Assembly: GCA_900617105.1 (NCBI GenBank)
Contig: UYFQ01000120.1
Coordinates: forward strand, 1 to 33,962
Direction: 5' to 3'
Source: Hydrurus foetidus
Taxonomy: Eukaryota
DNA: 33,962 nucleotides
Below the pieces are notes generated by a model. The model had not been told where the DNA came from and made no database searches. It saw only the letters and a program-made list of their open reading frames with translations. Each line of letters begins with the position of its first letter. The first letter of the stretch is position 1. The translations under genes were made by a program, and so were the position numbers. This document shows positions 2,171 through 33,962 of the stretch, piece after piece.

Positions 2171-3248
2171 CTGTGTGTGATGCGTGATAGGCTACCGTTG
2201 TGATTTCCGGATAAAGATGAGATCCTTTATTCCTGTTCACACGTGTAATGTGCACAGTAGGAAGCTCCTATACTCGACAATTGTATATGGGGAAACGCCA
2301 GCTGTATCACACACTTCACTTCATTCAAAATAGGATTTTCAACCACACACATGTGTTCTTTTCTGGTAAAGGAAGAATTCCATTTGGTTGAAATTCTTTA
2401 TTTCAACCTCTGGGAAAAGTTAAGAGAGGGCAAATTTGACTGGTGGCAAATCTCGTGGGAGTAGTATGGTGGAAAATCAAGACGTCCCATTTAAAGGGTA
2501 CATTGTGGGCCTCTAAAACAGAGGGCCCACAGTGTATTTATCAGGCAATTCCAAGAATTTATCCGGTTTTATCTACACCAACTTTTCTTCTTCTCGTGGG
2601 ACTTTTGTCGACTACAGGAGCTTCCGACTGTACAGTAGAATACATGGACACGCATGTATCACCAGAACATAAGAAAGTTTAACATAGATTCAACCGGACG
2701 ACTTCGGGGTTCTCCCAAGCAGCATATTGAAACCAATTCCTGTCGTTCTAAGTAACCTCAAAAAGCAGGAGATGGAGCCGAATTGAGTGAGCGGTTCGCG
2801 TTCCTGAAAAAAAATTCAATAAGTATCTGTAAACATAACTGTCGTAACAACCGGTTGATAACAAAATGTCCATATGCATGTAACGCTGAAGAGATGATTC
2901 TGTGCTTGTTACTTATCATGAAACTATCTTGGAGACGAATTCTCCATGAACAAGTAACACCTAGTGCTGTGTTTAAGATATTTGCAGATGCTTTCCATAA
3001 TCCACAAAAGTTCCAGTGAAATTTTGATCTCTAAAAAAATTCCAGTTATTGGTGTCTATAGCCATGAAATCACTCGATTGAAACAGTCGAGAGACATTTA
3101 AGATCCCTCAAGTGAACCAAGCGGCATAATATTTTGTGTTCAATCCGGAAACCCTGTCCATAAACCCCACATTATAATGTGATTTTGAAGTAAGTGTGGA
3201 TTTCCAGTTTTAATTTTTTCAATATAACATAAGTCAAAATGTTGGGTG

Positions 3249-3444
3249 TGTGGCCCTGAAGGAACTAGGCTAGAGGGCTAGGAGGTGTTGGGTTAGGCTT
3301 ACAAAGGGGTTGTTGAACTATATATGAGCAGGGAAACATCCTACTAGGGTGCTAGGAGTCTACCTAGAAGTCTACAGTGTGTTTGGGTATGAACCCAAAC
3401 AGACGGAATGGGGTCCAAGGTCCCGAGGGCCCCAGACGGCTACA
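3249..3444 (-). repeat. 3' LTR of gypsy-1
   Basis: Minus strand TGTAGCC...GGCCACA, matches 10171-10366; preceded on the minus strand by PPT GTGGGGGTAG; internal 9-bp hairpin TGTTTGGGT-ATGA-ACCCAAACA at 3380-3401. Confidence 0.97.
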
Positions 3445-3501
3445 CTACCCCCACTTATTTTAACTAAAATTGAAATCAATTTTGAGAATGAATAAACTAG
3501 G

Positions 3502-3640
3502 CTAGCGCTTTTAGGAAGGGCAAGTAAACTAACGCTTCTTAAGGAAGAGTGAAAATGATTTTTTAGAAATGATTTTTATGATCTAAACTAACGCTTCAGA
3601 AGGAAGAGTAACTAAACTAGCGCTTCATAATGAAGGGCAA
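3502..3640. repeat. Four imperfect copies of an about 22-27-nt unit (AAACTARCGCTTC-N5-GAAGRG) in the gypsy-1 3' UTR
   Basis: Copies at about 3502-3523, 3526-3550, 3585-3609, 3614-3640. Confidence 0.8.
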
Positions 3641-3761
3641 CATTTTCAAAAATTAGATGACATTTTTTATTTCCTTTCAGAAATATGTATAAAACACCAT
3701 ACAATGTGTGAAAAGAAAGAAAAAAGGGGGGGTTGTGTGTAGAGTGTGTGTACTCGTGAAT

Positions 3762-3845
3762 GATTATGTCAGATTTGTACTGACTAACCTCCGTAAAAAA
3801 AAACTCAAGTAATTGAGGTAAAAAATATTTAGGAGTAATCTTCAA
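3762..3845 (-). other. Conserved structured 3' UTR element shared with gypsy-3
   Basis: GATTATGTCAGATTTGTACTGACTAA (3762-3787) versus GATTATGTCAGACTTTTACTGACTAA (31766-31791), 24/26 identical, GTCAG/CTGAC stem. Confidence 0.75.
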
Positions 3846-3855
3846 AAGATATCAT

Positions 3856-6800
3856 TCACGGTTCTTCCCTTGTATTGGGAGTCATATTTCGAAATTCTTT
3901 TGGAATAACGTGCAACATGTTGTTATTGCGCAGATACGTATGAAGTTGATCTGTGGCGCGCATGGACTTCCATGGTTCCCATGAATTATGGTTTGAATCG
4001 TAGTTCAACCATTTAACATAAAATTTCATTGTAGAAGGTTTCTTTTTATTTCCAACGTGGGAAACGATCTCTTCAATAAAAAATTCCATGTAGTCGCGAC
4101 GAGCTGTGTCAGTCGGTGATTGGGAAGTTGGGTTGAACCTAAACGGTTTCAACTGACTTGCATGAACATCACGATTTTTCTTCGTGATAAGATTTTTAAT
4201 AGTGTATTCACTTTTATCATAGCTTACAACAAGAAATGGGCCCAGCCACATACTGTGCAATCTAGTCTCAGCACCTCTAGGGTTGAGAGTGAGAACGTAC
4301 GAACCTATTGGAAAAATAGTTCTAGGTTCTGTATTAACGGCTACACGGTTAATATCTGTTGTCTTCAACTTATTTATCGCTAAATCGTTGAGTTGCGTTT
4401 GGATGAGCAGCATGTCTGCAATCACCTTCGACGAACGAGTCGGAACTTGTGTTTGATCTGGAAACCTAACAAGAATACCTCTATCAAGGTTTAGTTGGTT
4501 TCCAAACAGCAAGCTAGCTGGTGAAGCTCCCGTACTTGAATGTACGGAACTGTTGATAATTCTCTGCACGAAAGGCAGGCAAAGCCTGTAGGCTTCGAGA
4601 TTTGTAGAGTGGAATGTAAAAGCACGTAAGTGTCGATTAACTTCCTTATTAACTCTTTCCACTATAGCATTCTCCTGCTTTGAGTATGCCAAGGTTAAGT
4701 TGTGGGGGTCCCTGTACGGAGTAAGAACTCACGTATGATTTCATTCATGAAATGAGATCCACGATCCGATCGGATCATGCTTGGTGCACCAAATCTACCG
4801 AAGAATTGTAGAAGGCATTCACATGCACATTGTGCAGTGTTGTTAACACACCAGTAAAGCTCAGTCCATCTTGTGAATGAACAAATCATTACCAAAACAT
4901 ATCCATTATCCGGATACGGACCAATATAGTCGATGTTGACTGTGTCAAACGGTCTATAAGTAGACGTTGTGTATTTATGAATGTGAACAGGGATTTTGAT
5001 CACACTCATTTTTGGCAACATGCGCAATTGCGGATGAAGTCTCTAACATGGGATGTCATGTCGAGCCATTCCTCATCTATACTTGACAGTTTATCGAGGG
5101 TACGAGCAATGCCTCCATGTCCCACCATGGCATTATGGCACATCTCTATAGCTTCGAGTTGTAACTCGGTAACAGGTGCAACTTCATGTAGAGCTGATAT
5201 ATGAACATCAATTTCCTCCACTCTAGTAGGTGGGTCAAGAATCACCAACTGTGTTAAGTTAGGACATAACCGAGACAGTGCATCGGCAATGAAGTTCTTG
5301 GGTCCACTTATATAGGACACAGTGTAGTCTAGCTCTTGGAGAGCCATCGACCATCTATTTACCATTGCTGATGGATCTTGACCTAAGAAGGTTAAGTTCT
5401 TATGATCAGTATGGATGATAAATTTTCTATCTCTTATCAGAGAGTCAAGTTGTTTACAGCAAAAATATATTGCATAGGCCTCCTTTTGAATGGTAGACCA
5501 TTTAACTTGTGTTGCGCTAAGCGACTTACTCACAAATGAGATTGGATTCTTGACAGAATTAGTTACTTGGAATAATACTCCACCTACTCCGTAGTCAGAG
5601 GCATCGGTGTATAACTCGATGGGTGACACTTCGTCTAAGAAGTGTAGCAGCGGACAGCGGGATATGGCTTGTCTTATGAGAACAAAAGCCTTATCTGCTT
5701 CCGTAGTCCACTGAAGGGCTGACTTTTTCCTCCCTTTAGGGTCAATCATCCTCTGAAGGGGTGCAACGATGTCGGAATGAAAAGGAACAAAATTCCTGAA
5801 GTAATTCGCCAAGCCCAACAGACTTCGTAAAGAAGTAAGTGTCATGGGTTTTGGGAAATTTAGGACAGATTCAATCTTCTCTTTTGACATTGATATGCCC
5901 TGAGAAGAGATCTGTCTGCCAACATAATCGATCTGAGACATCCCAAATCTACATTTCTTTGCTTTAAGCAGTAAACCAAAACAGCGAAAACGTCGAAAGA
6001 CTCGTTCTAGTCTCTCCAGGAACTCGTCCTGGCCTCGTGCAAAAACGATACAATCGTCTAAGTACATCTCACAAGAAATGTAGATGAGTCCATTAAGGAC
6101 AATAGTCGCCATCATCTCTTGGAAGTAAGAGGGGGCTCTCCGAGGACCGAAGGGGAGTCTGGTGAATTGGTATACACCGCAATAACAAATGAACGCAGTC
6201 AGGACCTTGGATCCTTGATCCATAGGTGCCTGATGGTAACCAGAAGTTAAATCCATAACTCCGAATATGACTGGCTGTTGATGGCCGATTCTCTCAAAAG
6301 AGCTCGAATGTTCGGAAGCGGCCAGCTGGAAGCCTGTGTGCATTTGTTCAGATTTCGGTAGTCAATGCAAAATCTGAACAAGTCAGCTGTTCTCTGTACT
6401 ATGACAGGATGGCTATAATAAACCGCATTCGATTCCTCGATGACTCCCGAGTTCAACATCTCATCGATGGCACGTTTGATCTCTCGTTCTTTTCGAACTG
6501 ATTGGAGACGAACGGCTGTTCTATTTTTAGAACATTCCCAATCCCTTTTATTGACCTTTATAACAAAGGGGGAAGTCTAGCCGGTTTAACTGCTAGCTTA
6601 TCACTAAATATGTCTGCATATTTAAGACAGAGTTGTCTAATAAGAAATTGTTGGTGTTCCGTTCCATCAATTTTTATCTGTGACAAAAAGTCCTCTGGCC
6701 CTGGAGGCGGAGCAGTCTGCTGAACGCGTTCAGGTAAGAATGGGCGAAATGTATCCGTCTTATCATTATCTATCTCGTCAGAAGAGATTATGATACCACT

Positions 6801-9374
6801 AGGTGTTTCCACTGTAGTAGCTGTTGGAGTACCTTCTGGCATTTCACATAAATGTGCTAGGGTGTACGTACGAGTACGTATGACACCACTATGGTTTGAT
6901 ACATAGTTACAACTGTTACGCGTAGGTTCGACCCCAGCGGCGTTTGGTTGACTAGAGCATCCGACATCAGAACAGTTAGCGACTCTGTTTGAGTCTATTT
7001 TGTGATATGTCATGGTACTGTTACCAGAATGAGGACATACCAAATCATCCTTCTTGCCCACACATTCCGACGGAATGCACTCAGCAGATAAGAAAACTTT
7101 CATTCTTTCGAAGGAGTTCTCCATATTAGGCCTCCCTATTTCGTAGGGAGTCTTCTCGAAGAAGTCATATTTCTTAAGAGTTTTTCGACCCAAAATTAAG
7201 TCGATGGTGTTTGGAATAATCCGCACCGTTAAGAAAATGGTATTAATTAATAAATTATGGGTGACAAAAGTCATTCCAATATCAATTACTTGGTCCCTAA
7301 CATAACATGTGTTATCTAGACCCGAACATATAGTTAAAGCTTTAGAAGAAGTATAAACAAAATCTTGAGCATTTAAACTAATTACAAAATCTTGACTAAT
7401 AAAGTCGCCAGGGAGACTCCCGGTGTCGAGTAGGACCTTTGCCAGAACTCGTTCAGCCCTAAGGGTGGGATGGTGGTGGTTGTTGGGGCTGGTATGCACT
7501 TGGACCCGCACCCCGTCCTTGACTATACTTCGCTGATTAATAAAAATCCAGGAAGATAAGAAGTTAGAATCAATCTCTATTCTGGTTATAGAGGCTGCAA
7601 CAATAGCGTTTAAGGAAACAGATTTACCTTGTTTTCTGTTTCTGCGTGTTTCTGCGTACTGTGCATTGTTAGCGGGGTCGTGTTGACCGGGTAACGTAGG
7701 TACGGTAGCTCCTCCATTGTCAAAACGAGCACGCTTGTTGGGTAGTTGGAGCATCGAGTATCTAAACTCGGACACTGGTTTGACCAGGTAGCGGACAGCA
7801 TGGTTTGGTAGTTGGGCTCCATCATCATAAGCTTCGAAGCCATATGAATGCCACATCTTACCCGCTGTTGAATCTTTCCATTGAAGGTGGAGTTCACTAT
7901 GGTTGGCGTCTGTGCGAAACAGAACTGGACAGAGTCTGACTTCATGTCCAGTGTGACCGCATGAGCGACATGGGATTGGCGCTGGTTGCGGCAACAACTG
8001 AATTATTGATTCAGTTGTTGGTCTCCTCAGCACTGCTGCACTGGGTGAGGATGCATGTGCATGAGCATGTGCAGGTGCAGCAGAAGGTTGAGGGTTAGCT
8101 GGTGAGTTCGCCAGCGCTGACTTGAGGTAGACAGCGGCAGCGTACGAACGCTGTTCAGGGATTATCGGTGTTCTGGCCTGCCGAGTCTCCTGCTCCTGGT
8201 ATTTGCTAAACAGAGTATGAATAGCGGAGGTATCGCCATAATTAGCAACTCGTTCAACGAGCTTCCTAACATTGAAGATGCATTTACCAAGACGAGTGAA
8301 CGCTTGTTCCCACGTTTCGTTCGGTATAGGTTTACCCTCGTTGCCACGAGCCGCGAAATAGTCGCTTTTAAGCTGACTATCCGGTTTCAGTTTTTTCTCG
8401 ATCGTAACTATCAGTGCAGCATGCTGCGCCGGAGTGATCGGTTGGGTATTCTCATAGACCGTTGTTAACGCCTTGAGAGCCATGAAGGATTTTCTCTCAA
8501 TGTCTGCGTTGGTGTAACAGAAAGAGATTTCAAGTCGTGAGAAGTTCTCAACGAGTGTTCTACCAATATCATTTCTGTCGCCAAAGTATTTGGTTATGAT
8601 TTGGGCAGCCTGTTTGACTGTAACATGATTGTACCATGTTGAGTATTTGCTTGGAGAGATGAGAGTGAACTCTGGATCGCTCGCGAACGCATACTGTACC
8701 ACATAGGTGGCAGGGTTAACCACCACCTGGTGTACCAGGAAGTTCTCATGCCATTGATTGGCTTGGTTCTGAAACTGGGCAGCTTGTTCTCCAGTTATCT
8801 CTGGGGTATCAATGATGAATAACGGTTTCTGTAGGTTCAAACCGCCAGTCATTGTCTGCTTCAACGCCGTCGTAACCTGTTCCATATTGTACTGAGGGTT
8901 CGGTTGTGGGTTGGGTACTACGTCGATGACGACGGGCGAGAGAGGTATCTGTCTCTGTTGCTCACGTGGTTTCTCACGTGGTACTCCATCGCTAACGATG
9001 GGTGCGACTGCTGCGTTAAGCAGGGTAGGATCGGGAACGCGAGGTTCAGGAGTCCGCGGTACAGCAATGACGCTGGATGAGCTCGACGAGCTACTCGAAA
9101 TCGACGGTTCGGTTTCAACAAGTTCCTGAAAAGGACTTTGGGCGTCGTATGGAATCTCTCCACACTCTTCTAGATCAGTCAGATGTTGATCAGAAGGAAA
9201 GGATTCCATGTCCATATCTCCCTCATCAGGGTTATCATCCGCATATGAAGCGGGTAAATCAGAATTTTCTTCCAAAGTTGAATTCTCATACTCCGACTCC
9301 ATCAAGGGGTTTCTCCGCCTTGTTTGCGGGTTAGATCCACGCCGTAAAGGCTGAACAGGGTTCTTCTTCACCAT
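3856..9374 (-). CDS. gag-pol: gypsy-1 Gag-Pol polyprotein (Gag, CCHC knuckle, aspartic protease, RT, RNase H, integrase, chromodomain); split by four 1-nt deletions; frame also open upstream to 10076
   Basis: CRSCGHTGHEVRLC; LLDTGS; RFCIDYRNLN, DLTSGYHQ, LPFG, YLDD; TDASDYG, EAYAI, TDHKNL, ADALSR; HHCC zinc finger, IDYIGP, SDRGSHF, ENAIVERVN, WLGPF; chromodomain IEEIVSH...FYVKWLNYDSNHNSWEP. Confidence 0.95.
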
Positions 9375-10159
9375 AGGGTGAGTGTTTTCAGTCAATAATT
9401 CCACACGAAGTGTTGGAATTATATTCTGGAGATTTTCGTATAGAAAACTATCTCCCGACGCCTCGTAAGAAGCGTTTCCACGCTCAACGGGATATAACCC
9501 CGGAACGTTTTTCTCTCTAAGTGGATTGCTTAGGTTTGACTCGGTTTGTTGAACCGGTGTGAATGTCGACTTATAAGTTGGTCGAGTTTGCAAAACAGAA
9601 ACAGGCGTAACACTCAGAAATTCGTTGGTTTCCAACAAATTCGACAAGGTTTCGTGTTGAAACCTCGGTATACAGCGGAGCGAACTTGCTGGAAGTCGCT
9701 TCTCAACTGTTCTCGGTTTGAAAACCGGTCGACTTCGCTTAAAAGCTGAAGGTGCAGGGGTTACGCAAGAGAGTGCTGGGTGTGTGGAAGGAGTAGAGTA
9801 GTAATTAGAGGCGTTATAAAGCGATGAACTCGCGGTTTCTCTATCAAGAGAATGACGTAGGACTGTAGGAGCTACTGTCCACGGACGTGGGTCGGTGAAA
9901 GTTGATGGATTAGACGGAGGATTGTCAGGCGGACGATCTGGATCGTCGTCGGCGTAGGTAATCTCCGGAGTTGGGCAGCGGTTTTCGAGTTCCTCTCGAA
10001 TAGCACGTTGCTCCGCCAAAAACAATCGATCTCTGAGTAGAGGGAACTCTGGAAAGTCCTCTTCACGAGGGATTTCTTAAACTTTCCAGCGAAGCACTGG
10101 AAGACGGCGAAAAACACGAATGAACACTAGGAAACTATAGAAGCTGGTGGGAAGTGGGA

Positions 10160-10171
10160 AGTGACGTCACT
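10160..10171 (-). promoter_or_regulatory. Perfect 12-bp palindrome AGTGACGTCACT at the primer-binding-site position of gypsy-1
   Basis: Starts on the last A of the 5' LTR; no TGG-initiated tRNA-complementary PBS present. The function is inferred. Confidence 0.75.
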
Positions 10172-10366
10172 GTGGCCCTGAAGGAACTAGGCTAGAGGGC
10201 TAGGAGGTGTTGGGTTAGGCTTACAAAGGGGTTGTTGAACTATATATGAGCAGGGAAACATCCTACTAGGGTGCTAGGAGTCTACCTAGAAGTCTACAGT
10301 GTGTTTGGGTATGAACCCAAACAGACGGAATGGGGTCCAAGGTCCCGAGGGCCCCAGACGGCTACA
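10171..10366 (-). repeat. 5' LTR of gypsy-1
   Basis: Matches 3249-3444; TATATA-like box at about 10241-10247. Confidence 0.97.
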
Positions 10367-10525
10367 GTGTACCGGAATATTATACCGGAACCGCGTTATT
10401 TCTTCATTATTTCCGCCAATGTGTGTATCGTCTCAGCCGAGCGGCTCTCAGCTCTCAGCTGTTCTACATTAGTCTTCACTGAGCATTCCAGTGAACAACT
10501 TCGAAAAACAGTATATACTGTAACG

Positions 10526-21366: not shown

Positions 21367-21877
21367 TGTTGGATATTATGGAACTAGGAACTAGGGTGTG
21401 ATTCCAGTTAGACCGTTCCTTACGGCACTAGTTCAGGATCTGGGATTTCGTAAAATCACCCTATGGGGCGGAAAATACTTAAATTTTTCCAGAACTCAAA
21501 AACTCAGAACTCGAGTTCTGGAAAAACAGGGTCATTTTTCCAGAACTCAAGTTCTGAGTTTTTGAGTTCTGGGAATTTTCAAATTCCAGGAACCCCGAAC
21601 TCATGCCGTAAGGAACGGTCTTAGTGCATGTATGAGTACTTACGGTGCGGTCAGCGGTGTAAGTGCGTATGGGTTTATCAAAATCATACAAATTGTTTTA
21701 GATTAGAATTGTTCGAGTGTGTAATGCAAGCTTCGTGAACTGGCAAAGTAGGAATGGAGTTCTCAAGCTTAATTGACAAGTGAATAGCAATCAACAATTC
21801 TATTTTACGAGCCTTGGAGAGAATCGGTAACAGCTCGGACTACCAGCGCAACCTGGGTGTTACTCGGTTTTCCAACA
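21367..21877 (+). repeat. 5' LTR of copia-2 (298 bp plus MITE)
   Basis: Aligns to 28599-28886 with about 10 substitutions, a 10-bp indel and the MITE insertion. Confidence 0.95.
21411..21620. mobile_element. 210-bp Tourist-like (PIF/Harbinger) MITE
   Basis: Perfect 17-bp TIR GACCGTTCCTTACGGCA / TGCCGTAAGGAACGGTC, TTA on both sides, absent from the 3' LTR; internal CAGAACTC/GAGTTCTG inverted repeats. Confidence 0.95.
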
Positions 21878-21907
21878 CAATTAAACTTATTAGCAGCATC
21901 GAGATCG

Positions 21908-23464
21908 ATGCCGCCGAAGAAATTCGATGATCCTTAATCAGATGCACCAGGAGGGTGTATCCTGCAAATAGGAAAGCATAACAACATCGTAATGTGGAAG
22001 GAGGAACTCGAGAATGAGGTTACCGGACTATACGGCAAGATGGGGATGTTCTTCACCACCGACGAGCGGTACATCATTCCGTTTCCAACGGAAGAGAACT
22101 ACAATCCAGCTGACATCGCACCTGTGCCAGCGTTGGTAGAGGACGAGGACGATCCGGATGGAAACGAGGCTGCAGCTGAAATGCATGCTGAGGCAGTGGC
22201 CGCACATGCAGTTGCAGTTGCACAATTACCGGTCGTATCTGCGGCCGCACTCGCAAAGTTTAGAGATGCAGCTCTAGACCGACGCAGTAAAGAGATGTAC
22301 AATCAGTCTCTTAACGAGAAAAAGTCTCCTTGCTATGGGGTAGAATGTCTACGGCGTCACAGTCGGCGATTCGTCAGGACCCCGAGTTCGAAACTGCTCG
22401 TCTTAACTTAGATGCAGTCGCTCTATGGAAGCTAATCAAGGAAAGTCATCTAACACACATCTATGGTGAGGATGACTCCCTTAGGTCGTATAACATGTAT
22501 GAGCAGATATCAAGGTATAACAGCCTCAGACAGGGTGATCGTGAGGCGATAGCAGACTTTAAGACAAGGTTTGACAATCAGGTGAAAGCAAACGATGGGG
22601 TCGGAGTCGCACCTTTAGAAGAAAAGCTGAGAGCTATTGACTTCTTATGCAAACTCGACCCTAAACGTTATACACCGATGTTGACCAGCATGCGTAATAA
22701 CGCAGCACAAAACCTCGCGTCAAGTTACCCTGTGACATTAGCAAAAGCCTTTAGGGTCGCATCATCATGGACCAGCAACGGAAGTTCAGGCCCGAGTGGA
22801 TACGAGCAACACTCTGCTTTCCTAACCGATACTGTGTTCGTGACTAAAGCGAGAGATTCGGGAAAAGGAAAGGGTGATAAGACACCAGAGGAAGGAAAGG
22901 GCGGTAAGACACCAGATGAAAAGAAATCGAGAACGAGATCGACAGAGGGTATCACATGCTTCGTATGTGGAAAAGGTCACTTCGCCAAAGACTGTCCGAT
23001 TCGAAAACAGCCAGAGGCAGCACTCGTAGTCGCAGCCTCGCAGCGACTACGAGTAAGTGATGAAGACGACGGAGAATACAGTGATCAGGAAGCGATATAC
23101 CTGACAACGGATGAGAGAGTGCTCTTCTCCAGGAGTCATGTGCTCCTGGATAATCAAGGATCTGTGAATGTGTTCAATAATCCAGAGCTCCTCACGAACA
23201 TTCGAGATTCGGCTACGGGGATTCTACTTAGCGGCGTCCAGGCAGGTGCCACTGGAGTCAAGGTTACGAAAGTTGGGACATTCAATGAGCTAGGAGAAGT
23301 ATACTACAGCAAGCTGGCTAACGCGAATATCCTCTCATTTGCTGCAATGATCGACAGAGGAGCATTGATCAAATACGATGGGATTGCAGAGTGCTTTACA
23401 TTGAAGTGGCCATCAAGCAAAGGGACTTACATTTTCAAGAGACTTCCTATCGATGGGAGCGAAG
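21908..23464 (+). pseudogene. gag: copia-2 gag + protease, interrupted at 23465 by gypsy-2
   Basis: ATG 21908 with in-frame TAA at 21935, frameshift near 22328; LRQGDREAIADFKTRF, CFVCGKGHFAKDC knuckle, LLDNQGSVNVF...ANILSF protease. Confidence 0.9.
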
Positions 23465-23672
23465 TGTGATAGTACCGGGTCCAGGGTCCTGATCCTACCG
23501 GGTACCGACTCTACCGGATCCTACCAGGTACTACTACTGTACACTACAGTGAGGCTGTCGTGTCGTCAAGGCCATCTGCAGCGTCCACTCAGAAGTTAAC
23601 TAGCTTCTCGCATAGACACCTGTAACTAAGCCTACCTACTCTCGACTCCCTTTCCCCATTTGCCCGATCACA
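23465..23672 (+). repeat. 5' LTR of nested gypsy-2
   Basis: TGTGAT...ATCACA 6-bp inverted termini exactly where the copia ORF breaks; 208 bp; partner LTR absent. Confidence 0.8.
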
Positions 23673-23683
23673 ATAGATCTATT
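23672..23683 (+). promoter_or_regulatory. Perfect 12-bp palindrome AATAGATCTATT at the primer-binding-site position of gypsy-2
   Basis: Starts on the last A of the LTR, same register and length as in gypsy-1; no tRNA-type PBS. The function is inferred. Confidence 0.75.
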
Positions 23684-24248
23684 AGCCTCGGGAAATTTTC
23701 TACTGCCCCTAATTCCCCCTCTACTCGTCCAAACTTAAGCTAAAACTTCCAACACTGAGTACGATATACTCACGACATCTACGGAGTCGAAATTCTCGCT
23801 GAGCTACGCTCCAAGAACTTAGTTTAAGTTAGCGAAAGTTGGGCTTAGCCTCTTTCATCTTGGAACCCATTACTGGTGTCTCCAAAGTTCGTAGTTGGTT
23901 GAATTCGCGAAAGCCTTCACCACTCGACAACTTAAAACTCGTCGGGTTGCAATTTGAACGTTGGATTCATTGCTAGCGACACCAAATTAGTCTAAGGACT
24001 TCTTTTGGTCGGTGGGAATTGCTTCCTTCATCCTTTACGGACACCAAAATTTTTCTCCACTCAAAATTTGGCTTTTACGCCTAAGAGATTTTCTCAACAA
24101 GAGTTGGTTGAAACCAAGTTATTCGCTGTTACTTGCGTAAAGTACCCTCAAAGCTAACGAGGTGAAGCCCTCGCAAATTCTTTTTGACGAGGAGATTGCT
24201 TAGTCGCTTAGACTTTGACGGATTTATAACTTCCTATCGTCGTATAAC

Positions 24249-26700
24249 ATGACAGAAGAAGAGGCAACTTATCCTCGTTACGACGATGAGTGAAAACTCA
24301 TCGTAGATCCTCCAGTTGTTCCCACTGAGGAAGAGGAAGTGCCCGAAGAGGATGGGGGTATCTTAAATGCCACCCAAACCTCACAGTCTTCGGTGGCGCA
24401 GACTATTATGTTTCCCCAGACTATGCAGATGCAGCGAGAGATATTCGTCCTGAAAGGCGATTACATCACTCCCCAAGACGCTGAGGAGTTCTATGAGCAA
24501 TCTCAGCGTCTGCCTCAGTTGCGCATTAACGAATGCATGCAACGCCAAGCGATTGACTTGCTACACGTCAAGATTATGACAGACATAAATCATTTTTCAG
24601 AAATGACACAAGAACGAAGGTTCGAGTGGCAAACTGTACTTGATATTGATTATGTTGCAAAACTAATCATGCAATACTTTGGCTCGAATAAACAACGAGA
24701 CCATAGGGATCATACCCTAGCGGAACTTTTCGCTAAAGTACCATTCTATTACTCACTCAATTCCGATGAGGAAGAGTTGAGCATGTACATGGCGTACAAG
24801 GAACTCGTAACCAACTACGAGCGTACCCGACGTATCACTCCCAACCAACATGTGGAGTCGGTAACGCTTTTGGAAAAGCAACTCGCTCGTGGCAGTTGCA
24901 TCCAATCAGACTATTTTGAGTCTAAACGGGGCGACTCGATGTCACCTCACACGTGGGAGACTGCCATGATGCGCATCATCACGGTCGTTTCCGCAGCACG
25001 CGAGGCCATCCGAATGAGCAGGAGCTACGGCAACCCTGATCATATCTACTCGTTTCCGAGTACCGCAGTACCTCCTCCCCGCTCATCGAAGAAGAGGGGG
25101 AGTACACTTGCAACACGCGAGGCGGAACCACCTAGTGGCAAAGGCACCCTAGCGGTTCGTACCTCATTGGACGTACCCCTAGTGGCTGCTCGAGTCTGCC
25201 GCTCGTGTGGAAATCCTGCACGCATGCTTCCCGTATGCCCCGTGTTATACTACACTGACACTAATAACGATCACTCCATTAACTGGTCGGAGTCAGTTGT
25301 CGGTCGTGCATGGTTAGCTAACGGTGAAGCCATGTGGCAGGAGAGGTTAATCCTTCCCGGTTACGAAAACCGTCAAAGATACCACCCCGCTGGTTCTCCA
25401 CCCTTCTTGATGTTCACCAACAAGAAGTCCAAGAATAATCATGGGTCGGGTAACCAAAGTAACCCCAACCAAGGTAACCAAGGAAACCAAGGTAATAACC
25501 GAGGCAACCAAAGCCAAGGAAATCAAGGTAACCAAGGTAACCAGAATAACCAAGGTAACCAAGGTATCCAAGGAAATTTTAACCGCGGCAACCAAAACCA
25601 AGGTTCTGGTAACCAGAGTGCTGGTAGGGGTTACAAGGGGAAAATCCCCGTGGGGGAAAATACAACCCACCCCAGGGGGGACCCAACTCGTCTTCCGATT
25701 CAGCGGGACAAAACCAAGGTACAAATGATTATGATGTTGATACTACCGGATGTTACGTCGTTCATTTCCCATGTCGATACACTTCCAACGCTTATTCAAG
25801 ATGAATATTTGCATGACCCTTCCACTCTCCCTTCTAACCACTTGAACGTCACTGTTTCGGTGCAGGATAAGGACAAGGACAGCAGGACTAGCGTACGATG
25901 CATTGTGGGCAAGGCCGTCTTAGACACCGCCAACTATTCATATTTCTTTTCTAATGATTCAAAAACTAAATGCTATGCATCTCTGTTATGAGGCTCCTAA
26001 AGCCATAACTGTTTGCTCTGGTCTCAATGGCCATTGCTATATAAAAAACGAAATTATTAATTTGACTCTCCAATTTCATTCTTATGATGGCGAATGTCAC
26101 ACTGTCCCACTAACCTTGCGAGTTAATAGGAATACAGAGATTGAACTTTTGATAAGTCGCAAAACTGTAAATAAATATGATTTTATGTCATATGGTATCT
26201 CTCCTGAGCTCAGTGCGGAGAACAAAAAGATAAGGGATACTCGTTGGTGCGAGTTTGAAGAAAGGGAAGCGATAGCAAAGCTTGACCCGCTTCACTGGCA
26301 CAAATACACTAACATGTCACGGAACAATTTCAAGATCCAACCTATGCCGGAATCGGTCATACGTACACTCAACGCGGCGGCAGCAGCAGAGGGACGTAGT
26401 CTTAAACGACAATCTGACGTGTTTTTCGACATGCAGTACATGCATAGCGTCAACTTTCCTAACATACCTACGTTCTTTCAACCCAATCTCAATCAGGCGG
26501 CGCGTCAAGAGGTATCTATACCTTCCATACCGTCCCTGATCCCCTCGGCGGCGCTTTCTGGTCTCTCAGACGGCAATCCATCTGAAGACTATAGACGTGA
26601 CGGCACAATCCACCCAGCCGAGGGGGGAGTACTACGATCTAATCTAGGCTCCGGGGATCGTGCAGCGGGGGAAACCGAGCAAACCACCCAACCTCTGACG
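24249..26700 (+). pseudogene. gag: gypsy-2 gag-protease, degenerate
   Basis: ATG 24249, in-frame TGA at 24291, knuckle His lost (CRSCGNPARMLPVC), VLDTA protease motif followed by a frameshift, then ITVCSGLNGHCY matching gypsy-1 LTICSGLDNTCY. Confidence 0.85.
25449..25617 (+). repeat. Degenerate 9-bp tandem repeat (AACCAAGGT)n encoding an (NQG)n tract
   Basis: GNQSNPNQGNQGNQGNNRGNQSQGNQGNQGNQNNQGNQGIQGNFNRGNQNQGSGNQS. Confidence 0.9.
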
Positions 26701-26879
26701 ACAGACCCCCCCAACCCACGGTCAATATTTCACGGCGGCATCATTCCTCCAGTACCAGAGCCCGAGATAGAAGCAGCCTTAGTAACAGAATCAACCGCAG
26801 CGAAATCCGACGCGCACCTCGATGAAATTAACCACGTCCGCGATACAGTCAATCCTCGATATGCTGGAGAAGAAGAGAG

Positions 26880-28534
26880 ATAGCGGTGTGACAAGCGATA
26901 CGAGCAATGTGAGCGTTTGTCAGGCTCTACTCACAAATGGAGCTGAGGTGAAGCGAGTGATCGAGAAAAAACTCCAGCAAATGTTGGATAAGAGGGTATG
27001 GACACCAGTATAGCCATCCAAGCTGAGTAGCACCGAAGTCTCGTCGATCATACGGTCATCAATGTTCCTGAAGAGAAAGAACTTTCCGGATGGCAGATTT
27101 GAGAAGTACAAGGCACGGCTAGTTGCAGGCGGGGATCAGCAGGACAAAAACCTATATGACGACTTATCCAGTCCAACAGTATCAACGAGTTCTGTGTTCA
27201 CCATGCTCTCAATCAGTGCTTACGAGAATCGACATACTGCTGTAGTCGACATTGGGGGAGCATTCCTTAACGCCAACATGACGACAGGAGTCAACGTGTA
27301 CATGCGTTTGGACAAAACTATGATCGACATCCTCTCTACCCTTCATAAAACCTACAGGTCCTACACTGACAGCAAAGGTCGTATAGTGGTGCTAGTAAAG
27401 AAGGCCTTTTATGGATGTGTTGAGAGCGCCGCTCTCTGGTACGAGAATTTACACTCCACATTGAAGTCGCTAGGATACCCAAGAAATGAGAGGGATATCT
27501 GTGTGTTCAATAAACTGGGCGAAAAGGGGGTGCAGTGCACTGTCACGGTGCATGTCGATGATTTGTTGATCATGAGTAAAAGCAAGACTATGATCCACGA
27601 GCTCGCAGACGGACTCCGCACTAGGTATGGGGAGATTACCCTGAACCATGGACCTACCCCAAATTACCTCGGAATGGATTTAGATATATCAGTCACAGGT
27701 GAGGCACGGATAACCATGAGCGGGTACGTCGACGATGTGCTAACCACAGCGGGAATACTGGGTGTATCGAAAACACCAGCCACCGATTGATTGTTCACCG
27801 TGAGAGAGGATACCGAACTGGCACCAAAATCAGTCAGGCAGTGGTTCCACAAGATCGTGGCAATGCTACTGTATCTATCAAAGAGAGCGCGCCCCGATTG
27901 CCTTACTGCTGTGTCCTACCTCGCAACCAGGGTGACTAAGTGCGATACGGACGATGTCGGGAAGTTAGTCCGGTAAGTGCGGTACATACGGGGGACTAGA
28001 GAAATGGGGGGGTGTTGAGACCAGGCGAGATGGGGGTGCAAGTCAAACTATATGTCGACGCATCATATGTTGTTCACACTGATGGACGTTCACACACTGG
28101 AAGTTGTGTGGTTATAGGGGACGTCGGGTCAGTCCACTGTCGATCTACCAAGCAGCAGATAGTCACAAAGTCGAGCACGGAGGTGGAGCTAGTGGGGCTA
28201 TCCGACTCGGCCAACCAGGCGATCCACATCCAAGATTTTCTCTCCCTGCAAGGTTACAAGCTTGGTCCTATTGTGGTGTACCAAGACAACTTGTCGTGTA
28301 TGGCACTACTTGAGCGAGGGGGTTCTGGGGCAGAGCATACACGGCACATTTCCATCCGCCACTTTTCATAAGGAGCGAGTGGACAACAGCGAAATGTTGA
28401 TCAAGCACAAGGGGACGAAGAAGACATATGCGATTGCACTTACAAAGCCGCTTCAAGGTGCACAGTTCCAGTACGAGAGGGAGTGCCTCACCGGATGGCC
28501 GCACCAAGGAGCGATGCAGAAGATCTTAGCTTAG
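26880..28534 (+). pseudogene. pol: copia-2 RT + RNase H with several stops and frameshifts
   Basis: KYKARLVAGG, SPTV, DIGGAFLNA, KAFYGCVESAALWY, HVDD, RPD, YVDAS, KSSTEVE, DNLSC, LTKPLQG. Confidence 0.93.
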
Positions 28535-28598
28535 TCTGCACTGTAGTCATGTGCGTGTGTCATTGCCTGCGCACTAACTAGCATCCACCTTAGGGGTG

Positions 28599-28886
28599 TG
28601 TTGGATATTATGGAACTAGGAACTAGGGTATGATTCCAGTCAGTGCATGTATGAGTACTTACGGTGCGGTCAGCGGTGTAAGTGCGTATGGGTTAGTCAA
28701 AACCATACAAATTGTTTTAGATTAGAATTGTTCGAGTGTGTAATGCAAGCTTCGTGAACTGGCCAAGTAGGGATGGCTTAGTTGACAAGTGAATAGCAAT
28801 CAACAATTCTATTTTACGAGTCTTGGAGAGAATTGGTAACAGCTCGGACTACCAGCGCAACCTGGGTGTTACTCGGTTTTCCAACA
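28599..28886 (+). repeat. 3' LTR of copia-2 (288 bp)
   Basis: See 5' LTR; followed by TSD CAACC. Confidence 0.96.
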
Positions 28887-28999
28887 CAACCCTCCGCTGA
28901 AAGGACTGTCGGAATAACTAATGAGCTAAGTAACCGTATAAGTTATTGCGTATGTACATTTAATGACGTCTCGTACGTCGTGTGCTGTGTGGAGGTCGC

Positions 29000-31681: not shown

Positions 31682-31900
31682 CTACCCATTCTTCCTTTTT
31701 TGAAAATTACAGGATACGCATATTAACAAAAAAAGTACAAGTATATGAAAGATATATTATAAAACGATTATGTCAGACTTTTACTGACTAAACTCTCCAA
31801 AAAACGAAGGTTAAAAAAATAGGAGAGAATCCTCATGGATAAAGTTTCAAGGATATATGTATATCAACGGTGTTGTTTATTGATTAATTTTGTCATATTA

Positions 31901-33962
31901 TTATGACAAATAATCATGGAGTTTATCAACATCACGAAGACTTGAGTAAGGTTCCCAAGTGTTTTTGTCAGAAGGGTAATTTAACCACTTGACTAAAAAC
32001 TCTATATGGGTACGTTGATGTTTGCCACGATGATCAAGAATATCTTCAACAAAGTATTCCATGTGATCACGTCGTGCAACATCTAACGGATTTGTGATCG
32101 ATGGGTCAAATAGAAAAGGTTTCATGTAGAAACATTCTGATGTTTTCTGAGTGACTAGATCATATAAGGTGTAACGCGAATTTTCGCCACTAACGACTTT
32201 TAATGGACCTCTCCAATGCGTATGAAGACGTGAAGGAGGGGATCCATCGCGATAGTGCACTAAGACATAAGAGTCTTTTGGATACTCTACATGCTGAAAG
32301 ATTTGAGACTGACTTTGATGAAGCAAATCTGTGCGAAGAAGCTCTTTAGCCGAAGCTTTAAGAAGGCTATCTTGCGTTTTGAGTAGATTGCTCATACGCT
32401 TTGACAAAGGTTTGTCATCAGTAACATTTCGCTCAGCAGGAGGTAAAAAGATACCTCTATCGAGTTTCAGTACATTTCCGAAAAGAAGTTGAGAAGATGA
32501 TATCTTCAAACGATCACTGTGGTTAGAATTTAAAATTCGTTGCACAAATGGAAGTGATGTTTTATAATCTTCTAGTGTGACATTATCGAATGTTAATGCA
32601 CGAAGATGTCTATTAACTTCTTTATTCATGCGCTCAACAATAGCATTTTCTTCTTTAGAATATGCTAAAGTAAGACAATGTTGAGTGCCAATAAGAGTTA
32701 GAAACTCTTTAATAACTTCGGAAATGAAGTGTGGCCCATTATCAGAACGGAGTTGGAGAGGTGCGCCGAAACGACCGAAATGTTGCAAGAGGCATTTAGC
32801 TGTTGAAAGTGCCGTAGCATCTTCTGTATGAAACAGTTCAACCCATCTTGTGAACGTATCGATAATTACGAGTACGTACCCGCCGTCTGGAAACGGTCCT
32901 ATGAAGTCTATGTTAAGGCATTCCATAGGTGTGTAAGTAGAAGTCGAGAAGCCATGAGCATGTATTGGTATCTTTAACATACTCATCTTCTGACAACACG
33001 AACAGTGATCTATGAACCACCTGACATGCTGTCGCATATATTGCCAAATTTTTTTGTCTTTGAGACGCTTTAGAGTGCGCTCAAGACCGAAATGCCCAAC
33101 TTGTGAGTTGTGTACTTTACTGATAGTATTGTACTGCTCACGTGTTAGTTTAAATTTCTCAATAATATTAGCAGACATGATTGCATCAGGAGTATATTCC
33201 TGAGGGAAGTCAACCATGTTATTGCGACAGAGTCTAGACATCGAATCGGCTATATCATTGTTAGGTCCAGGTATGTATTCAATCGGATAAGGCCATAAAC
33301 CACCGAACAATCATTGGATTTGAATTATCCTTTATGTATAACAAGTTACGATGATCTGTACGTAATGTAAACGTACGATCACGTAATAGCGATTTTAAAT
33401 ACGTGCACGAATAAAAGATAGCATATGATTCTTTCTGTATTACAGCCCAACGAAGCTGTGCTTTGCTGAGTGATTTACTGACAAATGCTATGGGCATTTC
33501 TCGACCGTCAACTAACTGAAAATGATAGGCACCTACACCATAGTCCGATGCATTTTGAAATCTCAGATTTGATCAAATTGAATGCTCTGAGAGCTTCTAT
33601 TGTCCAAGTTATTTTCTTATACTTATTGTAGTTAAGAAGCAACTGATGTAACGGGTATACAACAGTAGAAGCGTTTCCAACAAAGTCGTGAAAATAATTA
33701 ACCATTCCTAAAAAACTTTTAAGTTGTTTAGATAGTACTGGTTTAGGAAAATCTAAGACAGTCCGTATTTTTTCTTGTGACATTCTAAGTCATCAGCAGA
33801 TAGAACTTTGCCAACATAGTCTATTTCGGCATAGCCTAGATAACACTTATTCGGTTTAAGGAATATTTTGTGTTTTCTAAATCGATCAAACACAAGACGA
33901 AGTCTAGTAATAAGTTCGTCAATGTCTTTACCGAAAACATTGCAAACATCGATGTACATTTC
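31901..33962 (-). pseudogene. pol: gypsy-3 pol (RT end, RNase H, integrase, chromodomain), degenerate, continues beyond the window
   Basis: YIDV (mutated YIDD), SFLGMVNYF, TDHRNL, ADSMSR, HHCC, IDFIGPF, SDNGPHF, ENAIVERMN, WRGP, VEDILDHR...FLVKWLNYP...TWEP; RNase H N-terminus partly deleted. Confidence 0.93.

Follow-up and report, generated by a model that had tools for sequence, protein, structure and literature searches.

The window, i.e., the whole stretch of 33,962 nucleotides analysed here (Hydrurus foetidus, contig UYFQ01000120.1), carries the LTR elements gypsy-1, gypsy-2 and gypsy-3 and a Copia element. The host sequence is present in biofilm, sediment and freshwater runs. The features of the gypsy elements are as follows:

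3249 to 10366, minus strand: whole gypsy-1 element, flanked by two LTRs of 196 nt each (100% identity)
10171 to 10366, minus strand: gypsy-1 5' LTR, 196 nt, TG...CA, matching the second LTR
10160 to 10171, minus strand: putative palindromic primer-binding site (PBS) of gypsy-1, made of the LTR terminal A, a 10-nt self-complementary core and T
6558 to 10076, minus strand: gypsy-1 gag-protease open frame, with a CCHC-like knuckle and LLDTGS
5006 to 6361, minus strand: gypsy-1 frame encoding RT, RNase H and the zinc finger of the integrase, frameshifted relative to the upstream frame
3856 to 4728, minus strand: C-terminal part of the gypsy-1 integrase with chromodomain (PF00385, E 1.9e-08)
3760 to 3850, minus strand: conserved structured element in the gypsy-1 3' UTR, repeated within the window and conserved in relatives
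3445 to 3456, minus strand: gypsy-1 polypurine tract (PPT)
3249 to 3444, minus strand: gypsy-1 3' LTR
23465 to 23672, plus strand: gypsy-2 5' LTR, about 208 nt, 3' end inferred, inside the Copia element
23672 to 23683, plus strand: putative palindromic PBS of gypsy-2
24294 to 26883, plus strand: gypsy-2 gag and protease frames, the remaining pol and the 3' LTR being deleted
31901 to 33310, minus strand: gypsy-3 integrase-chromodomain frame (PF00385), same clade, 5' end beyond the window

Gypsy-1 has the domain order of Ty3/gypsy chromoviruses, gag-PR, RT-RNase H and integrase with chromodomain, then a PPT, all between TG...CA LTRs. Among solved structures, the best relative of its RT is the Ty3 RT; its gag-protease frame has no match in Pfam. 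Contigs of the gypsy-1 family reach hundreds of times the depth of the flanks in two of three DNA-type runs (contigs only), which suggests many copies. Although its LTRs are identical, the element lacks a 4-6-bp target duplication and is bordered by just GTG/GTG (3239-3248, 10367-10376), and its pol has two frameshifts; inter-copy recombination or assembly collapse is a possible origin of this state.

Gypsy-2 is provisionally assigned to the chromovirus group by the similarity of its gag to that of gypsy-1 (24% identity, E about 1e-29), its pol being deleted. No 3' LTR was found within the window, and the surrounding Copia element resumes after the pol deletion. Because pol and the 3' LTR are deleted, the point where the 5' LTR ends had to be placed from its termini, TGTGAT...ATCACA; its last 8 nt (CGATCACA) are also the last 8 nt of the LTR of the relative L135, whose end is fixed by a second copy. 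The Copia element that holds gypsy-2 extends from 21367 to 28889 with the target site duplication CAACC, and within its 5' LTR lies an inserted segment of some 210 bp that carries long inverted repeats (21405-21626). A deletion near 26800 fuses the gypsy-2 protease to the Copia RT.

A structured element follows the integrase stop at 3760-3850 and 31760-31850 of the window (minus strand), at L005:3075-3163 and in other relatives. Its parts are a UGANGAUU-like motif, a stem rich in U and then a 5-bp hairpin, in which two of the five pairs show compensatory changes (19 sequences). A crude pattern finds it in 38 of 100 loci, a few of these matches being spurious. It has no match in Rfam, and inspection by eye found no complete hammerhead core. 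It is possibly a packaging or export signal.

Directly after the 5' LTR, gypsy-1 carries AGTGACGTCACT (10160-10171) and gypsy-2 carries AATAGATCTATT (23672-23683). As an earlier note on this DNA had claimed, both are perfect 12-nt palindromes that have 4 of 12 letters in common; neither extends to 14 nt. That note also placed the start of both on the terminal A of the LTR. This holds for gypsy-1, whose first A is the final base of the LTR as fixed by the identical second LTR, while for gypsy-2 it depends on the inferred end. As a statistic for the window, the chance of 4^-6 per site that it gave is over-optimistic: 19 perfect 12-mer palindromes occur here, against 8.3 ± 2.6 in 30 mononucleotide shuffles. 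Since such 12-mers are by themselves not rare in the window, position and conservation in relatives were tested instead, and it is these, not the occurrence of a 12-mer, that carry the weight of the evidence. In three DNA-type runs (contigs only), no variant of at least 5% is listed inside 10160-10171, while adjoining positions vary, and some contigs diverge at precisely 10160.

Relatives were collected by scans with RT and integrase alignments, which gave 68 loci from bin contigs and 2 from viral contigs (0, 2 and 0 loci in the viral contig scans); the metagenome relatives are the best 80 of 278 confirmed matches. Five contaminated bins, with 30 loci that mostly duplicate contigs already in the set, yielded no new junction and were excluded from the counts. 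Many prokaryotic freshwater bins (L002-L043 and others) contain eukaryotic retrotransposon contigs, with at most 38 matches per bin, which is likely due to contamination.

In a blind scan, which ignored LTR ends, the sequence upstream of every gag-homologous frame (at least 100 nt required) was searched for perfect palindromes of 10 nt or more preceded by CA or TA. A match was found in 41 of the 48 gag-upstream regions, against 6.1 expected from dinucleotide shuffles. Two of these matches are due to chance, in L044, where the palindrome lies inside an outgroup LTR whose actual site is TGG, and in the third block of L101. Among the 45 in-group regions, 39 are true junctions, three have no LTR junction and three, the misses L092, L133 and L147, have their palindrome beyond the scanned interval. 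The rows removed from the 48 were the outgroups L044, L068 and L070, as well as L073, the first block of L087 and the third block of L101, which have no LTR junction.

Manual curation led to 64 junctions from 62 loci, with 24 distinct palindromic cores. The core is palindromic in all 64, and the palindrome includes the terminal A in 59; the outer A:U pair is broken in the other five, which belong to three families and retain the terminal A. After this A, the core measures 10 nt in 59 junctions, 8 nt in two, 12 nt in one and 14 nt in two, and the base that follows it is T in 59 of 64. The register described in the earlier note is thus upheld, while the total length is not always 12 nt and varies from 8 to 14 nt after the A. 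The apparent LTR end is CA in 50 junctions and TA in 14 (L023, L075, L084, L087-L089, L099, L103, L114, L123, L124, L127 and L130); none of the 14 TA ends is confirmed by a second LTR copy, L127 and L130 being ambiguous. After several LTRs comes sequence that is neither palindromic nor gag; it was interpreted as host flank or as a chimeric assembly in L012, L028, L082, L093, L096 and L117 and, with less certainty, in L107 and L111.

Four outgroup gypsies (L044, L052, L059 and L070) have ordinary TGG sites. The palindrome-bearing elements cluster apart from them with a modest stem support (0.86 for RT, 0.47 for IN) in trees that lack reference chromoviruses and include just three or four outgroups, and from which 5 of 66 rows (RT) and 7 of 66 (IN) are absent for lack of coverage. 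Distant families carry identical palindromes in some cases.

Other features of the LTRs deserve mention. In 25 of 46 junctions, including those of the window LTRs (10171-10366 and 23465-23672), and in 1 of 49 controls, TGTAA lies 35-85 nt upstream of the LTR end; we take it to be a candidate poly(A) signal, with a role as in green algae. The LTRs of L129 measure just 75 nt (124-198 and 5090-5164). Furthermore, many relatives (for instance L094:204, L101:188, L149:10) have palindromes centred on GTAC or CCGG close to where the LTR begins, at the start of U3; these are possibly promoter sites.

The curated junctions and the alignment A4 were selected using the palindrome, so the pairing figures derived from them are partly circular. 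Three lines of evidence are independent of this selection: the blind scan, the LTR ends fixed by second copies and the pairs of near-identical copies. A second LTR copy that continues into other sequence fixes the LTR end of nine junctions; their cores all begin at +1, and none of the eight flanks of the second copies is palindromic. Over 4.5 kb, L072 and L121 share 99% identity and differ at the palindrome centre, which is CG in one and TA in the other. In the same way, L110 and L112 are 95.5% identical, with the centres GC and TA. Across the relatives, all four Watson-Crick types are represented at both central pairs. In the 42 aligned ungapped junctions, a set fitted to the structure, pairing in the central helix amounts to 99.6%, with a covariation score of 0.537 compared with 0.148 for shuffled sequences and 0.060-0.104 for slid partners. 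The check for palindromy and covariation in related families proposed in the earlier note thus came out in its favour, the palindrome being kept in register by compensatory changes. The site is real and conserved, and it is either under selection for symmetry or generated by the replication cycle itself. Central covariation alone does not separate dimer priming from snap-back priming or mere dimerisation, because, if the site self-primes, a full palindrome is equally needed for second strand transfer.

No core starts with TGG (0 of 64 curated), in the relatives as in the two window elements for which this had been claimed, and a PBS of the tRNA 3'-end type is therefore excluded; a half-tRNA PBS appears disfavoured by the sequence diversity of the cores alone. 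A complement within the LTR, as in Tf1, was found in none of 45 junctions at a threshold of at least 10 of 11 matches, some LTRs being partly covered, and the mean best match is 7.4 against 7.6 in shuffled sequences. For the window elements, whose LTRs were said to hold no complement, the best matches are indeed 7/11 (gypsy-1) and 6/11 (gypsy-2). A downstream partner of the GalEa type (within 12-41 nt, at least 8 of 9 matches) exists in only 1 of 49 de-replicated junctions, the mean best match being 5.7 against 5.9 by chance. No stable partner of the gypsy-1 or gypsy-2 PBS was found elsewhere in its own element. By the defining tests of these systems, the palindromic site belongs neither to the Tf1 nor to the GalEa system.

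A palindrome that starts on the last A of the LTR in place of a PBS has already been published for the fungal GalEa elements of the Ty1/copia superfamily (PMC5445492). Their Conserved Hairpin Site is a 9-nt PBS replacement, palindromic with the LTR final A, which shows paired substitutions, has no LTR complement and has a downstream partner, CHSeq2 (Donnart 2017, PMC5445492). In the available text, Donnart et al. suspect a PBS role, mention the dimerisation signal DIS and find that no described model fits; dimer priming is not proposed in that text (PMC5445492). The GalEa case is cited in PMC6934838. The site described here is similar by the lack of a tRNA PBS, the palindrome formed with the LTR final A directly after the 5' LTR, the paired substitutions and the lack of an LTR complement. 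However, GalEa elements are Copia whereas those studied here are chromodomain Gypsy elements (RVT_1, Gypsy domain order, chromodomain). Furthermore, the GalEa site has 10 nt and two dominant sequences, against mostly 12 nt and 24 sequences here, and it has the CHSeq2 partner that is found in 1 of 49 junctions here.

Tf1, sushi and Tcn1 are also chromodomain Ty3/gypsy elements without tRNA PBS and with intact RNase H, and share with the present group an RNA duplex of about 11 bp at the LTR end (predicted here) and possibly a flanking U5 arm (PMC7175516, PMC6317226, PMC4600332). In Tf1, RNase H cuts after the 11-bp self-primer duplex (PMC7175516), which is part of a three-duplex "pretzel" structure (bioRxiv 10.1101/2022.12.06.519325). 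The difference is that the 5' end of the Tf1 transcript pairs in cis with a non-palindromic PBS, while here an LTR complement is found in 0 of 45 junctions. Skipper and SM-Tcn1 of dictyostelids are chromoviruses with neither tRNA PBS nor LTR complement, whose priming is unexplained in the available text, but instead of a palindrome they have a stretch that is polypyrimidine or rich in T (PMC5006619, PMC2864245). The word stem "palindrom" is absent from the available text of PMC6317226, PMC5006619, PMC4600332, PMC10886601 and PMC2864245. The literature searched, mostly outside subscription papers, yielded no description of such a palindromic site for Gypsy chromoviruses, nor any of priming by a dimer. 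Goodwin and Poulter (2001) reportedly described a "novel priming" for Tcn2-5, which may hold a precedent. To the question of novelty raised in the earlier note, the answer is thus divided: the position and the palindromy are already published for GalEa Copia elements, while the chromovirus case and dimer priming were not found in the literature searched.

The mean predicted homodimer energy is -9.8 kcal/mol and the mean heteroduplex energy is -1.25. Many cores are AU-only, and the weakest homodimer has -6.2 kcal/mol. A monomer hairpin is predicted in one of 49 sequences, that of gypsy-1 (3-4 bp, -1.8 kcal/mol), and the value is 0 in the other 48. The catalytic D/E/D/D residues of RNase H are intact at every covered position in 56 RTs. 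An additional arm can be predicted between U5 and the bases just downstream of the site (-4.34 against -3.21 ± 0.26 in permuted sequences). Its fixed register, the best among 49, occurs in 13 of 48 sequences against 5.8 expected, kinship being ignored. This arm is weak, missing in most elements, and would be one arm only toward a Tf1-like three-duplex structure.

These observations point, with a probability of roughly 0.55, to two genomic RNAs that pair through the site, one of them being cut by RNase H to give the primer. Genomic RNAs packaged together would align antiparallel in twos, pair by means of the 10-nt palindrome and form a dimer of 10-12 bp, at times with the short extra arm between U5 and downstream bases, like one arm of the Tf1 "pretzel". 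The RNase H of the element would then cut one strand and leave a 3'-OH beside the LTR end of the partner. The earlier note placed this cut at the 3' edge of the 12-mer. Because five of the 64 junctions have lost the outer A:U pair but kept the terminal A, the 3' end of the primer is more probably +10, if these copies are functional, and the terminal A would be copied as DNA. The cut would thus fall between +10 and +11, so that DNA synthesis would begin with a T across from the terminal A, giving a cDNA with a flush end at CA. During second strand transfer, annealing of the primer's plus-strand copy to the site's minus-strand copy would be possible only with a full palindrome, and resolution of the heteroduplex at this step is a possible route to the double centre swaps. 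What is observed is the pairing potential; we infer dimer formation, cleavage, priming and all that follows. Likely, the 10 bases after the 5' LTR serve both as template and as primer and, by analogy, the chemistry would work like that of Tf1 but in trans. The dimer priming first suggested for this DNA is thus partly supported: the symmetry, the lack of TGG or LTR partner, the RNase H residues and the predicted stability of homodimers but not of heterodimers are in its favour, while a cut at the 12-mer edge is less likely. The family-specific priming attached to it would be partial, since distant families share one palindrome.

The palindrome could instead be a dimerisation or packaging signal only, like PAL6 of Ty3 or the retroviral DIS, with priming by another route. 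In Ty3, genomic RNA dimerises through a short 5' palindrome, the separate 6-nt PAL6, located in a hairpin loop inside gag (PMC11381356). The analogy with DIS was raised for GalEa by Donnart et al. (PMC5445492), and the predicted dimer energies are compatible with it. What the reading proposed here shares with these signals is that two genomic RNAs pair with each other by way of a 5' palindrome. However, as described in the available text, PAL6 and DIS have 6 nt, lie in loops at a distance from the primer site, are additional to the tRNA PBS and have no role in priming. Here the core begins at +1 regardless of its length, and no alternative primer site was found, so a signal for dimerisation only appears unlikely.

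A single RNA could also be cut at the edge of the palindrome and fold back to prime, second strand transfer selecting full palindromy. Such snap-back needs no partner RNA and predicts a full palindrome just as well, and the gypsy-2 region with its flanks is predicted to fold as a local hairpin. The monomer hairpin itself, 3-4 bp at -1.8 kcal/mol in gypsy-1 and 0 for 48 of 49, nevertheless falls far below the 11-bp primer duplex of Tf1 (PMC7175516), which makes this route rather improbable. There is a similarly slight chance that a second, shorter transcript starting at the palindrome primes the full-length RNA in trans with its 5' end, in the manner of Tf1. This would give the exact Tf1 geometry, with the 5'-terminal 10-11 nt on the PBS, and would require palindromy too, but the candidate poly(A) signal fits an ordinary R-U5 layout, though it is compatible with a second start.

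Very improbable is a symmetric site at the DNA level, bound by a dimeric host factor or the integrase and without role in priming. Palindromes are often protein-binding sites, further ones exist inside these LTRs, and gypsy-1 contains TGACGTCA; the 24 sequences nevertheless retain the symmetry and not the letters, the centre swaps between copies that are 99% identical, and the group would be left with no primer site. Least probable of all is a chance complementarity of the site to some small RNA of the host, be it a tRNA, a half-tRNA or another: half-tRNA priming is known in Copia lineages, but none of the 64 cores starts with TGG, and the 24 mostly AU-rich cores change in compensated pairs that one conserved tRNA segment cannot follow.

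The initiation of reverse transcription in LTR elements that have neither a tRNA site nor a Tf1-type partner is an open question in print, as for GalEa, Skipper, SM-Tcn1 and Tcn2-5. The present chromovirus group supplies a large covarying series and intact single-ORF members. The odds are about even that intermolecular self-priming is a distinct mode of minus-strand initiation next to tRNA, half-tRNA and Tf1-type cis self-priming, which would make dimerisation, priming and second strand transfer one step, which would have arisen independently in this Gypsy chromovirus group and in the fungal GalEa Copia elements, and which would explain the GalEa site. If priming by an RNA dimer is true, these elements would prime without host tRNA, the dimer would be obligatory, and cross-priming would be limited to elements with a common palindrome. 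Annotation tools that require a tRNA PBS would overlook such elements.
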